64,000 nt of DNA from Lophium mytilinum (Eukaryota): assembly GCA_010093605.1 (NCBI GenBank), contig MU004182.1, positions 1,707,032-1,771,031 of the forward strand. The letters are read 5' to 3'. Both the position numbers and the translations under genes were made by a program. Position 1 is the stretch's first letter, and the number at the start of each line of letters is the position of its first letter. Below the pieces are notes generated by a model. The model was not told the DNA's origin and did no database searches. It saw only the letters and a program-made list of their open reading frames with translations. Shown here in pieces: positions 11,767-14,805 of this stretch.

Positions 11767-14700
11767 TCATGCTGCAACTAATGGCGTTGCCTCCTTGAAC
11801 ACAGTCTCAAGATCCTCCGCAGTCACCTCGTCCTCCAACCACATCCTCGCCTTTTCGACCACCAACTCCCACGTATCCTTCTCCGCCACAGCCTTCGTCT
11901 CCAAATACAACACCACCAGCGCCGTTGCGACTACCATAGCCGCACTAATCTCATCCTTGAAAGAACCCAACGTCGCGATCCTCACCAAAAGGTCACGTGC
12001 CTTCTCTCGATCAATGCCCATACCATCGCACTCCAAGTCCTCACGACCCCACGACCCATCGAATGCCTGCTTGTGGACCAATCGCTCCAGCAACGTCTCG
12101 CCGTGCACCTTACGCTTCTTAGCCGGCTGGGCGGCCGGGCTCTTCGACCTCTTCTTCACCGCTGCATCGGCAGCCGGCGCAGGAGGAGCGAGATCCTCGG
12201 TATCGAAGAAACCAAAGCCCATATCTTCGTCAGAATAGTCCACAAGATCTTCATCCTCACTCTCTTCCTCTTCTTCCTCATCCTCGTCCACTTCAGCCTC
12301 TACGTCTGGGAGGATCTTTCGATGACGCATAGCACCCCCTACAGCCAGGCCTCTACCTCCTCTTCCCCTGCCTCCAGATGGAGTAGGAGGCGGAGGTGCA
12401 AGCGAAGTAGAAGGCGCCGATTTCCGCGCGGCCTTGCTGGCGAGCTGCTTCCGGGGCGCCGCGCCGCCGGTGGACTTGCGCGCTGTTTGTTTGGTTCTTC
12501 TACTGCCCCTTACTTGTGCTGGCATTGCTGCTAACCCACGGTTAATATCGCGATCGCAATGGAGTGTAGCACTCGCAGTAGACTTACCATTATCAGAAGA
12601 CTCGGTATCCACCATTTCGAAGCCATCGTCGTCGTCTCCCGAGGCCTGGTTCCCGATCATTTCGAGTGCCTGTTGACGCTTTGCTGCGATCTCGGCCTCG
12701 TTGGCCTCGACGGCTACGAAGGAACAGTACTTCCCTCCGACCTGGAACTGGACTCCGAGGCGGACAGCTTCGCGCTGGACAATGGCGTCGAAATGTCCGG
12801 CGTACTCGTTTCGGACGAGTTTGCCGTCTTGGCTTTCGGCCTCATAGATCCATCCGCGGCCTTCTTCGAGCTCTTGGGTTGCTTTACGAGCAGCTAGCTG
12901 ATGGATGGTAGCACCAGGGGCTTCAAGTACTTGCACTGGTATTACCAGTTCGAGTGGTCCTTGCGGGGCAGTTCCACGTAGGATTACAGACGTGGGTGCT
13001 GCGTTCGAGGTTTCCGGCGACATCAACACGTAAACAGATGTGCGGTTGAAGGGGTAAAGCGGCGGAATGATGTGAGGCGTCTGCAGCAGCTTTGGGTGCG
13101 AGATCTTTGGCAAGTGGCCGAAGCGGTCCTCGGATACGACTTTGTTTTCCTCTTCGTCTTTTTCGGCTGCGTCTGCATCGTATAGAGAGATCGGCTTGTT
13201 GCGGAGTGCATATCTCTCCGAGGAGTCTTGATTGCTGTCATCGTCTGAGAAAGCGAGGTTGAGCTTGAGACTATCAGACACCCGGTCAACAGCGTCGTCT
13301 GGGTATTTGATATCCAGAGAGTAGTCCTTGATGTGTGGGGTGAGGGCTCCTTTCAGCATGCGAACAACCTTGCCATTGATTTGCTCTCCGAACCCAACCA
13401 TTTGTGCGAACCCGTTTCCAGCGCGGGCGATGCCTTCGATGAGTGAACTGGATACTCCACTTCCGATGCCGAGAGGAAAGAGTCGCACGGCCCCGTCCCT
13501 GGTGTTATCCTTGATGTAGTCGAACAATGTCTCTTGCGACCATATGTCGCCATCAGTGAGCAGCAAGATCTCTGTCTCGAGATCTTTAGTGCGAGTCTCA
13601 AAAGCTTCTTTGATTGCTGCAAAGGTCTCCGTGCCGCCAAAATCAGCAGAGAACTTGCCGACGTACTTCATGGCTTCGTCCAGGGCGTCTTGACTATATA
13701 GCTTGCTTTGAGGCCAAAGCAGCTCGTGATGTGAGCCGAAAGAGAGGATATTGAACCTTACGCCCACTGGGAGGGACTTCAGAAAAACCTGTAATGCAGA
13801 GATCAAAGTCTTCATGGAACTACCAGACATACTCCCGGACCTATCGGCAATGAAAACGATCTCGGGTTTGGATGGCTTGAGTGCGAACTTGGGTACCAGA
13901 CTGAGCATCAATGCGCGGTGGTTCGGGATGGATGAGTGGGTCTCCAAGAGGGCCTGTGGTGCTCCGACGTCTTTAGCGACTACCTGAAGGACGAAGTCGG
14001 CATCTAACTCTGTTTCTCCGAGAGCTAGAGTAGCCGAGGCCTTATTGGAGCTGAATAGTGCGTCACTAGGCGACGTTGACAAGGTGCCAAGAGATACAGC
14101 GATAGGGTGAGTTGGAGACTGAATCTTCTGAAGCGGAGCATCCTCGGACATTGTGATGTCGACTGTGATAGAGATCCCGCCCCCGGAAAGAGTAGATGCA
14201 GAAATAAGTTGACCAGGGTAATTTCCGTAGCGAGGGGCGATAGAGGTTGGCAGCGTGTAACGAATCCCATCAACCTCGGCGTCGTGCTTGAGCTCTCCGA
14301 TATACGTGATGGTCACCACGACCTGAGAGTCCCCCGGGATGTTACCAATCGTCGTAATGAACACGTCGGCAGCGTCAGGTAGTTGCTCCAAGAGCGCAGC
14401 CTTTTCTCCACGCTTCACCGCTTCGTTGTAAGCTTTCTTAGCTTCGTCCTTTTCCTTGACTAACCCATAGACGGTGCGGTCCCCGACCTGGCACTTGAAG
14501 TCCACTACACTGACGCCATCAAAGAGTGGAAAGGCGTATCTAAAGCTATTAGCAAGACTGACAATGTGTGAATAGGGATATCCTGCTTACTTGATTTCGT
14601 CAATCGGTCTCGCCGCTTCGAAGGTTTGCGTTAAAACAGTACTGAAAGCAGTAGATAAGATGGTCGTATGTGCATCTAGATGCGTCTGCGGAAGGTAGAC

Positions 14701-14805
14701 CCGCGTTGACCCTCCGGATGGCGTAGGTTGGAGAAAGTAGCAACTGCAAATGTGCCCGCCATAACGTAGCAAGCCACCACGAGGTGGTTCTTTAGTCCGG
14801 GCCAT
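11767..14805 (-). CDS. VIT + von Willebrand A domain protein (VWA5A/PARP4-C-like, about 995 aa) with a histone H3/H4-tail and P-stalk mimic linker
   Basis: Exon1 14805-14591, intron 14590-14540, exon2 14539-11767. VIT ([26 protein letters not shown]), vWA MIDAS ([16 protein letters not shown]), C-terminal helical domain ([29 protein letters not shown]). TATAAA near 14916-14921. Confidence 0.92.

Follow-up and report, generated by a model that had tools for sequence, protein, structure and literature searches.

Histone mimicry is known from motifs of 4–12 residues in viral and a few animal proteins. Among endogenous proteins, JARID2 and G9a carry ARKS-like motifs connected with the machinery of lysines 9 and 27 of histone H3 (H3K9/H3K27), and SETDB1 is said to be a self-methylating histone mimic. 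The stretch analysed here, 64,000 nucleotides of contig MU004182.1 of the fungus Lophium mytilinum (hereafter the window), encodes on its minus strand a protein with VIT and vWA domains, and the disordered linker of this protein holds a copy of the H3 tail at positions 12406–12498. In this case, a gene of the fungus itself carries an almost whole H3 tail and an H4 tail side by side, and the arrangement is conserved across long-separated fungal classes.

EZHIP (CXorf67) is a mammalian endogenous 'oncohistone mimic' that blocks PRC2 with a K27M-like peptide. The fungal protein resembles it in being a non-histone protein with a short conserved peptide like the H3 K27 region, which in EZHIP engages PRC2, and in the occurrence among its relatives of methionine at lysine positions, namely at K9 in 6, K18 in 2 and K23 in 2 of the 35 distinct H3-like copies, and at H4 K16 in 11 of the 19 distinct H4-like copies. 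It differs in that EZHIP mimics about a dozen residues with Met at K27, whereas the copy in the window spans 31 residues (30/31 identical), keeps K27, has an H4 copy alongside and belongs to a fungal VIT-vWA protein. NOP16 competes for both the methylation and the demethylation of H3K27. The likeness of NOP16, JARID2, G9a and SETDB1 to the present protein lies in ARKS-like motifs competing for, or modified or read by, the H3K9/H3K27 machinery; however, their motifs comprise 4–10 residues, whereas the window protein copies a whole tail, and its conserved block, H3 16–31, is longer than any of them.

Two further systems touch on the same tails. The H3 N-terminal mimicry proteins (H3TMs) possess H3-like N-termini that bind PHD fingers and NuRD. 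The window protein begins with MARTK and relatives begin with MARTKQTARAS, in agreement with the rules stated for them (removal of Met, R2 and K4), although H3TMs were defined in the human proteome and a close relative of the window protein reads MVRTNQ. The karyopherin Kap123 binds H3 1–28 and H4 1–34 as import signals, gripping H3 via K14 and K23 and H4 via K16 helped by K5 and K12, and the substitutions K14A, K16A and K5Q/K12Q lower binding. The tail copies of the window represent these same stretches; nevertheless, the lysines that Kap123 grips (H3 K14; H4 K16 and K5/K12) are precisely those replaced in the window copies.

Regarding the scaffold, PARP4 (vault PARP), the inter-alpha-inhibitor heavy chains (ITIH) and VWA5A share with the window protein the VIT and vWA domains, its core being like that of ITIH1 and its end domain resembling the vault-bound domain of PARP4; in contrast, the window protein has neither a PARP nor a BRCT domain, nor, by eye, an obvious N-terminal secretion signal. 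To our knowledge, copies of histone or ribosome tails are not known in PARP4 or ITIH, although no search was aimed at them. Plant nucleotide-binding leucine-rich repeat receptors (NLRs) and NLRP1 use integrated decoys or tripwires, and they resemble the window family in that pieces of unrelated host proteins occur in one carrier family at one position. They differ from it in that Pfam identifies in the window protein just VIT and vWA families, with no NB-ARC or NACHT domain, the family shows no nucleotide-binding oligomerisation or known executioner domain by Pfam, and there is no sign of conflict; in the window protein and the 10 relatives scanned with Pfam, NOD/NACHT, death-fold and other signalling or killing domains were not found.

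Histone tail copies in the linker

The linker and the pieces that it contains are the following, all on the minus strand:

12103–12639, minus strand: disordered linker, residues 623–801 (179 residues) of the open reading frame (ORF), predicted by AlphaFold2; it holds all the tail copies
12406–12498, minus strand: histone H3 tail copy, H3 residues 2–32 with K14A (phmmer against the PDB, and translation)
12304–12378, minus strand: histone H4 tail copy, residues 1–24 (phmmer against the PDB)
12235–12303, minus strand: acidic tract, similar to the Spt5 N-terminal region (Pfam Spt5_N, sub-threshold)
12202–12234, minus strand: internal motif similar to the C-terminus of the ribosomal stalk proteins P1/P2 (phmmer against the PDB)
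12106–12156, minus strand: basic run similar to a classical nuclear localization signal (NLS), read from sequence

The H3 copy corresponds to residues 670–700 of the unspliced ORF and to residues 734–764 of the spliced protein. A first-pass annotation, prepared from the nucleotide sequence, had proposed that H3 residues 2–32 are copied here with a single difference in 31 positions, A for K14, and both the minus-strand translation and a phmmer search against the PDB agree with it; the plus strand of 12406–12498 encodes an unrelated peptide. When the surrounding 163 residues were used as query against all PDB chains (E≤10), 205 distinct sequences were retrieved, the best 60 of which are all H3-type chains, with a best E value of 7.8e-11. 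The fungal-type source that had been proposed from S22 and S31 is borne out by the S22/S31-type H3 chains 8qyv_A, 7e9c_A, 6gej_A and 4kud_A, which are identical at 30/31 positions (E 2.4–2.9e-10), the sole difference being A for K14. As that annotation also stated, K4, K9, S10, K18, K23, K27 and S28 are retained, and the copy greatly exceeds in length the short mimics known so far. Beyond T32 the likeness is lost, the window reading SLAPPP instead of the GGVKKP of H3; some relatives' copies do extend through GGVKKP. Thus, the N-terminal tail sequence of H3 is present and its three-helix histone fold is absent, and Pfam gives no histone family in the carrier protein even at E≤10. No second H3-like stretch occurs in the 64-kb window. 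Among the contigs of the source sample (X1), nothing beyond the locus itself matches 12406–12498 at ≥80%, a result that is not used as evidence, conserved-gene contigs possibly having been filtered out.

The higher GC content noted at first pass is also confirmed, being 0.677 in the H3 copy versus 0.602 and 0.495 in the 93 bases on either side and 0.532 over the window as a whole. The composition of the copy, rich in Ala, Arg, Gly and Pro, raises GC at codon positions 1 and 2 (0.645 versus 0.521 in the gene), and GC at the third position is high as well (0.742 versus 0.59), so that GC alone is no proof of a foreign origin. On the other hand, the emphasis that had been laid on K14A was misplaced; the change is present in the window copy, but the relative found in run X4 has AAG (Lys) at this codon, and K14 occurs in just 13 of the 35 distinct H3-like copies. 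The window codon, GCG, is two changes away from that AAG, and K14A, specific to this lineage, falls at a position under little constraint and is no hallmark of the copies. In the same run X4, a second, deeper contig covers codon 14 (window 12449–12555; depth 52 in 2 contigs), which may be an allele, a paralog or the true H3 gene.

What the first-pass annotation overlooked is the minus strand, the adjacent H4 tail copy, the motif similar to the ribosomal stalk, the H3-like N-terminus of the protein and the pattern across the family. The H4 copy starts 11 residues after the H3 copy, and a 37-residue piece containing it retrieved 63 PDB sequences (E≤10), 59 of the best 60 being H4, with a best E value of 9.8e-6. 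It is identical to H4 at 17 of 23 residues and has no fold domain; K5, K8, K12 and K16 have become R, R, V and M, respectively, and the basic patch RHRK and K20 are retained. The N-terminus of the protein, once Met is discounted, has the same first four residues as H3, and 11 of the 266 family proteins sampled begin with M[AV]RT[KRN][QEP]. This MARTK start would represent a second, N-terminal kind of H3 mimicry within the VIT-vWA family.

The stalk motif shares 9 of 11 residues with the C-terminus of P1/P2 (E 0.15), and eight of the nine PDB matches are P1/P2 chains (E 0.15–1.2) aligned to their last residues, SDDDMGFGLFD. In the ortholog P0121, the motif matches Pfam Ribosomal_60s with E 2.1e-5 and 25.4 bits, missing the cut-off of 28.1. 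It is not a P1/P2 protein (PF00428) that is encoded here, the motif being internal in the window protein, as in all 31 distinct family copies, where it is often followed by DGP or GPP; the P1/P2 N-terminal dimerisation domain was not detected, in that no whole-family Pfam match was obtained. A release of this stalk-like end by ITIH-like cleavage was considered and dropped, as the residues after ..FD vary (DGP, GPP, TED, SPV, KAS) and no conserved site is seen. The acidic tract matches Pfam Spt5_N (PF11942) with E 0.0023 and 19.3 bits, below the cut-off of 24.2, and is a lead only. Relatives show RFLxVEAEVDDED-type versions of it; since the acidic FIDVEAEIDD-type stretch of P0167 gave 0 matches to PDB sequences at E≤10, the likeness to Spt5 depends solely on the sub-threshold Pfam match.

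In the AlphaFold2 model, built with a 66-sequence alignment, residues 623–801 have a predicted local distance difference test (pLDDT) score below 50, the H3 copy included, and no secondary structure; residues 1–621 and 802–912 are confident, and the predicted template modelling (pTM) score is 0.71.

Conservation and distribution of the copies

In an alignment of 14 sequences, the stretch that links the folded core to the end domain is invariant at just six columns, all of them in the H3 copy: R17, Q19, L20, A24, R26 and K27. Over H3 17–31 (15 codons), the window and locus L017 have the same residue at 15/15 positions, and 10 of their codons are different, all 10 changes falling at codon position 3 and none at positions 1 and 2; against L004, 14/15 residues are the same, with 0 changes at positions 1 and 2 and 10 at position 3, and against L001, likewise with 14/15 residues, the changes number 2 and 9, respectively. 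Synonymous divergence with protein identity, which the first-pass annotation had named as the sign of selection, is therefore what relatives' copies display, with the H3 core preserved between distant relatives at 15/15 residues, 10/15 codons different and all the changes at third positions. A recent neutral insertion, the outcome that would have spoken against that annotation, does not agree with the occurrence of the H3 copy at the same place in relatives of four fungal classes. Compared with the approximately 90%-identical X4 relative, the changes listed, which are a partial set, include at least 8 synonymous changes and at least 3 replacements in the three modules (A14 to K in the H3 copy, A11 to G in the H4 copy and F to L in the stalk motif), and at least 3 synonymous changes and at least 7 replacements in the spacers. 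As judged from these alignments, the H3 copy is shown to be old and under purifying selection centred on H3 16–31, its core being nearly invariant while synonymous sites are saturated.

Among the 35 distinct H3-like copies, in which positions 19–22 and 24–27 belonged to the search pattern, R17 is kept in 34, P30 in 32, K23 in 29, S28 in 28 and P16 in 27. The N-terminal part is looser, K14 being present in 13 and K9 in 5, with M at position 9 in 6 and A in 6. The copies with Met at a lysine position come from the proteins P0103, P0125, P0127, P0128, P0149, P0221, P0287 and P0372 and from locus L045; five are K9M by eye (6/35 by count), two are K18M, and K23M is found in two proteins and one locus; in the count over the 35 distinct copies, M stands at K18 in 2 and at K23 in 2. 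These changes recall the lysine-to-methionine 'oncohistones'. The 19 distinct H4-like copies keep G7, G9, L10, G11, G13, G14 and A15, and position 16 is never K (M in 11, L in 3, F in 2, and I, W and A in 1 each).

A search with the linker alone gave 196 matches, and the 120 best comprise 113 histone-fold proteins, mostly fused gene models, and 7 VIT-vWA proteins, all 7 of which have the H3-like stretch at the same place. The family numbers 1848 representatives at E≤1e-30. In a family sample of 266 proteins, 219 have the end domain and are regarded as full-length; scored by simple patterns, 20 of these are H3-like, 27 H4-like and 39 P-stalk-like, 34 have at least 3 phenylalanine-glycine (FG) motifs, and 58 carry at least one of the three tail motifs. 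The P-stalk motif is the commonest of the three in the sampled family. A metagenome scan with alignment A1 identified 79 loci, some of them duplicates, and the H3-like core is present in 8 of these, the H4-like core in 7 and the P-like motif in 15; the scan with a single protein gave 155 pattern matches, 0 of which were confirmed. The named carriers of the H3 copy belong to Dothideomycetes, Sordariomycetes, Lecanoromycetes and Sareomycetes, and the H4 copy is found additionally in Arthoniomycetes.

In a FastTree phylogeny of 202 cores, the window falls in a well-supported clade of 55 rows, 38 of them with at least one motif, and further carriers are scattered elsewhere; the tree requires at least 21 state changes for H3, 12 for H4 and 16 for P, and 40 label changes. 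The history may reflect either an old origin followed by many losses or repeated gains, and the former is favoured because the order and the place of the motifs are constant. In L001 and L004, a change of reading frame occurs after the core and ahead of the H3 copy, at the place matching intron 2 of the window, as would fit descent from a common ancestor. Where the tail copies stand in the linker, paralogs carry other pieces that exceed the Pfam cut-offs: Synaptobrevin in P0180 (31.0 bits) and P0212 (28.2 bits; cut-off 26.4), Nucleoporin_FG in P0183 (36.6 versus 32.2), Pkinase_C in P0185 (26.6 versus 20.9), corresponding to the C-terminal tail of AGC kinases (FQGFSY), and an RA domain in P0238. 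The ribosomal, SNARE, nucleoporin and kinase fragments raise the question of why one family collects the exposed tails of unrelated core machines.

Readings of the linker

The reading preferred here, with a probability of about 0.45, is that selection maintains the stretch as a mimic of histone tails, which would compete for or recruit the chromatin factors binding to such tails. The precedents of EZHIP, NOP16 and H3TMs, together with the conserved tail block, lead to this reading, and the conservation of H3 16–31 around ARKSAP and of the H4 basic patch points to recognition by readers or modifiers of these tail regions. The usual features of an endogenous mimic are found, a histone-like peptide that lies in a non-histone protein, is conserved and is accessible, accessibility meaning here predicted disorder. 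The linker would thus present, in order, the H3 tail copy, the H4 tail copy devoid of acetylatable lysines, the acidic tract, the copy of the P-stalk end and a basic run that probably acts as an NLS. The carrier protein would be nuclear, and its tail copies may be bound, and perhaps modified, by proteins normally acting on histone tails. Candidate partners are the proteins that write, erase or read marks in the K27/S28 region and those that bind the basic patch of H4; the carrier could either compete with nucleosomes for such factors or be recruited and regulated by them, in the manner of EZHIP, NOP16, JARID2 and the self-methylating G9a and SETDB1 of animals.

Several points weigh against this proposal. 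Binding and modification are presumed and the partners are candidates, and the nuclear location is suggested solely by the basic run. The P-stalk motif of the same linker is not explained by a purely chromatin-centred view, nor are the synaptobrevin, FG nucleoporin and AGC-kinase tail pieces of the paralogs. The copies are patchy in the sampled family, with 20 H3-like, 27 H4-like and 39 P-like out of 219, and many lineages are without them. Finally, the comparison covered the copies of relatives, and gene conversion with the H3 gene of the species itself could conceivably have maintained the likeness.

If the copies are read or written like histones, they would constitute an unrecognised layer of control or buffering for H3K9 and H3K27 methylation in fungi, which is reported to govern the genes of secondary metabolites and effectors, and the natural variants with Met at lysine positions would offer a ready-made series of probes. 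No link of VIT-vWA proteins to histone or P-stalk tails was found in the literature covered, most subscription journals and supplements lying outside that coverage, and copy-specific strings, including ARMSTGGKAPRKQLA and one of 14 residues, gave no occurrence in the papers searched, supplements again excepted.

The pieces that a chromatin-centred reading leaves aside suggest a possible, if doubtful, alternative in which the linker displays copied pieces of conserved host machines as decoys, tripwires or a sponge for the enzymes or toxins of competitors and parasites, and a hit on a bait would alter the relationship between the VIT-vWA core and its anchoring end domain. By analogy, the fungal VIT-vWA family would then be an unrecognised bait-display system, a PARP4-like anchor and an ITIH-like core holding out a hypervariable disordered linker, into which exact pieces of H3 and H4 tails, the stalk end, the Spt5 acidic region, R-SNAREs, FG repeats and AGC-kinase tails would have been pasted repeatedly, and which may sense, soak up or misdirect enzymes and toxins acting on those machines; a Met, Leu or Phe in place of H4 K16, and the repeated replacement of Lys by Met in the H3 copies, could act as natural 'oncohistone-like' traps for lysine-modifying enzymes. 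The gathering of pieces of unrelated proteins at one linker position (H3, H4, Spt5_N-like and P-stalk in the window; Synaptobrevin, Nucleoporin_FG and Pkinase_C in paralogs) and the patchy gains and losses, with 40 label changes on the 202-row tree, speak for such a system, and the P-stalk end is the docking site of ribosome-inactivating proteins. Nevertheless, no known signalling or killing domain was found, there is no conserved partner gene nearby (in a tblastn search with 112 flank ORFs of the window, the 79 metagenome loci gave no match at 1e-8), and the H3 core is conserved rather than fast-changing. The proposal is built on analogy, and we know of no toxin that targets fungal H3/H4 tails. 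Another alternative, considered unlikely, is that the tails are borrowed nuclear import signals carrying the 105-kDa protein into the nucleus via histone karyopherins. It draws on the binding of H3 1–28 and H4 1–34 by Kap123, on the classical-looking basic run of the linker and on the FG repeats of some paralogs, which bind transport receptors; however, the window copies have A14 in H3 and R5, V12 and M16 in H4, K14 is present in 13/35 and K16 in 0/19 family copies, a generic signal would not need fixed Q19, L20, A24, A25 and P30, and the P-stalk motif is left unexplained. A Kap123-type signal, for which K23 alone of the gripped residues is kept, H3 14 being A and H4 16, 5 and 12 being M, R and V, was accordingly rejected as the main explanation.

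The charge of the linker could matter more than its ancestry. In this improbable alternative, the linker would bend so that its basic copies and acidic tract contact one another, or the metal site of the vWA domain, and act as an internal switch or as stickers of condensates, the histone ancestry being irrelevant. The basic H3 and H4 modules do stand directly beside a 23-residue acidic run and an acidic-hydrophobic motif, the residues of the metal-ion-dependent adhesion site (MIDAS) are intact, and the MIDAS of other vWA domains binds an acidic ligand residue; yet in the AlphaFold2 model the linker stays clear of the folded domains along its whole length, at pLDDT 32–42, and a charge pattern alone would not fix 15/15 residues over saturated synonymous change. 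Conservation of this kind also makes it very improbable that the stretch is a neutral relic, a recently inserted H3 fragment or a likeness kept only by gene conversion with H3. The abundant messages of histones are presumably a likely source of captured fragments, but the copy stands at the same place in four classes; an intron separates it from the acidic F/W motif in the window, and L001 and L004 show a frame shift there; the 10 nucleotide changes all fall at third codon positions and none at positions 1 and 2; the codons of the window copy include AGA, AAA, CAA, ACA, GCG (five times) and CGG; and the consistent departures from H3 and H4, such as H4 16 never being K and K9 often being M or A, are of the kind that conversion would erase. 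An artefact of assembly or annotation, to which the public protein model, marked 'partial' and ending before the linker, might lend some colour, is scarcely credible, since two runs of a single sample and one run of a different study all yielded contigs with the same sequence, a diverged version occurs in a third study, and the H3 copy is encoded by more than 30 relatives' proteins and by 8/79 metagenome loci.

Carrier protein and gene

The gene that carries the selected histone-tail mimic proposed above, its exons and the remaining features of its product are as follows:

11767–14805, minus strand: whole carrier gene, 3 exons, product of 976 residues
14591–14805, minus strand: exon 1 (splice model from the X3 contig)
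14540–14590, minus strand: intron 1, GT..AG, skipped in the X3 contig
12588–14539, minus strand: exon 2 (splice model from the X3 contig)
12531–12587, minus strand: intron 2, GT..AG, skipped in the X3 contig
11767–12530, minus strand: exon 3, stop included; holds the H3 tail copy
14791–14805, minus strand: protein N-terminus MARTK (translation; P0123 begins alike)
14302–14709, minus strand: VIT domain, split by intron 1 (Pfam VIT E 2.2e-18 in the ORF, VIT_2 E 5.1e-4 in exon 1)
13402–13863, minus strand: vWA domain (Pfam VWA_3 E 8.2e-31)
13831–13845, minus strand: MIDAS motif DRSGS, within the vWA domain
12607–12636, minus strand: acidic F-x-x-V motif at the start of the linker, read from sequence
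11770–12102, minus strand: C-terminal helical domain, ending in WELVVEKA (AlphaFold2 for this domain alone: pLDDT 92.2, pTM 0.86)

The VIT domain is followed by a vWA domain with a MIDAS, the order that defines the ITIH, PARP4 and VWA5A group, and in 66 sequences D221, S223, S225 and D318 of the MIDAS are invariant and T292 nearly so. The folded core matches ITIH1 (6fpy) with E 4.6e-21 over 650 columns. For the end domain, Foldseek gave no match at E≤0.001; its closest structure is an axonemal protein of T. brucei (9e5c_4t; Z 12.0, root-mean-square deviation 3.6, 109 aligned residues), an entry (9e5c) that also matched the core, followed by residues 1570–1706 of vault-bound PARP4 (9bw6_B; Z 6.9, root-mean-square deviation 3.5, 101 aligned; Foldseek probability 0.91, E 0.34), although helical bundles reach such Z values by chance. 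In this suggestive comparison of predicted and known structures, the architecture looks like PARP4 minus the enzyme part. At the position of the acidic motif that opens the linker, relatives have DDWEMVE, DDDWEVLE or EDDEFEIVD, and this F/W-x-x-V/L motif (12607–12636) is taken here to resemble an Atg8-interacting motif.

Unspliced, the ORF encodes 912 residues (11767–14505, minus strand). The splice model derives from a 3731-base contig of run X3, from another sample and study, which matches the minus strand with zero letter differences, skips both introns, joins the exons and keeps the H3 copy in frame and covered. The label of run X3 as RNA is a guess, and the run was used solely for this exon-joining contig, which looks like a spliced message, the only other explanation being that the organism of that run has a DNA copy devoid of introns; in the source sample, the DNA contigs continue through 14540–14590 and 12531–12587. 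The spliced coding sequence, of 2931 bases, is open with one terminal stop, and an in-frame TGA stands 6 codons upstream of the ATG. The 3' splice site of intron 2 lies 32 bases upstream of the start of the H3 copy. This intron, of 57 bases, is in frame and free of stops, and the naive ORF reads through it, gaining 19 residues not present in the spliced contig.

The carrier is the fungus's own chromosomal VIT-vWA gene and is neither viral nor foreign. Around it, the genes of the 64-kb window are ordinary fungal ones, among them those for a Zn2Cys6 factor, Sec7, PH, mitochondrial EF-G and squalene synthase. The hint at first pass that the H3 tail came from a 'host' is consequently not supported, the window being an ordinary segment of a fungal chromosome. 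The best database match is a 683-residue 'partial' protein of Lophium mytilinum, with 100% identity over 66% of the query, and the next is a Mytilinidion protein with 91%. Both public models, P0123 of Lophium mytilinum and P0124 of Mytilinidion, are 'partial' and end at ..FVAVE, right before the linker. The copies are missing from the protein set that most surveys use because the public Lophium mytilinum model ends before the linker, and in the deposited P0123 and P0124 the end domain is missing together with the tail-bearing linker.

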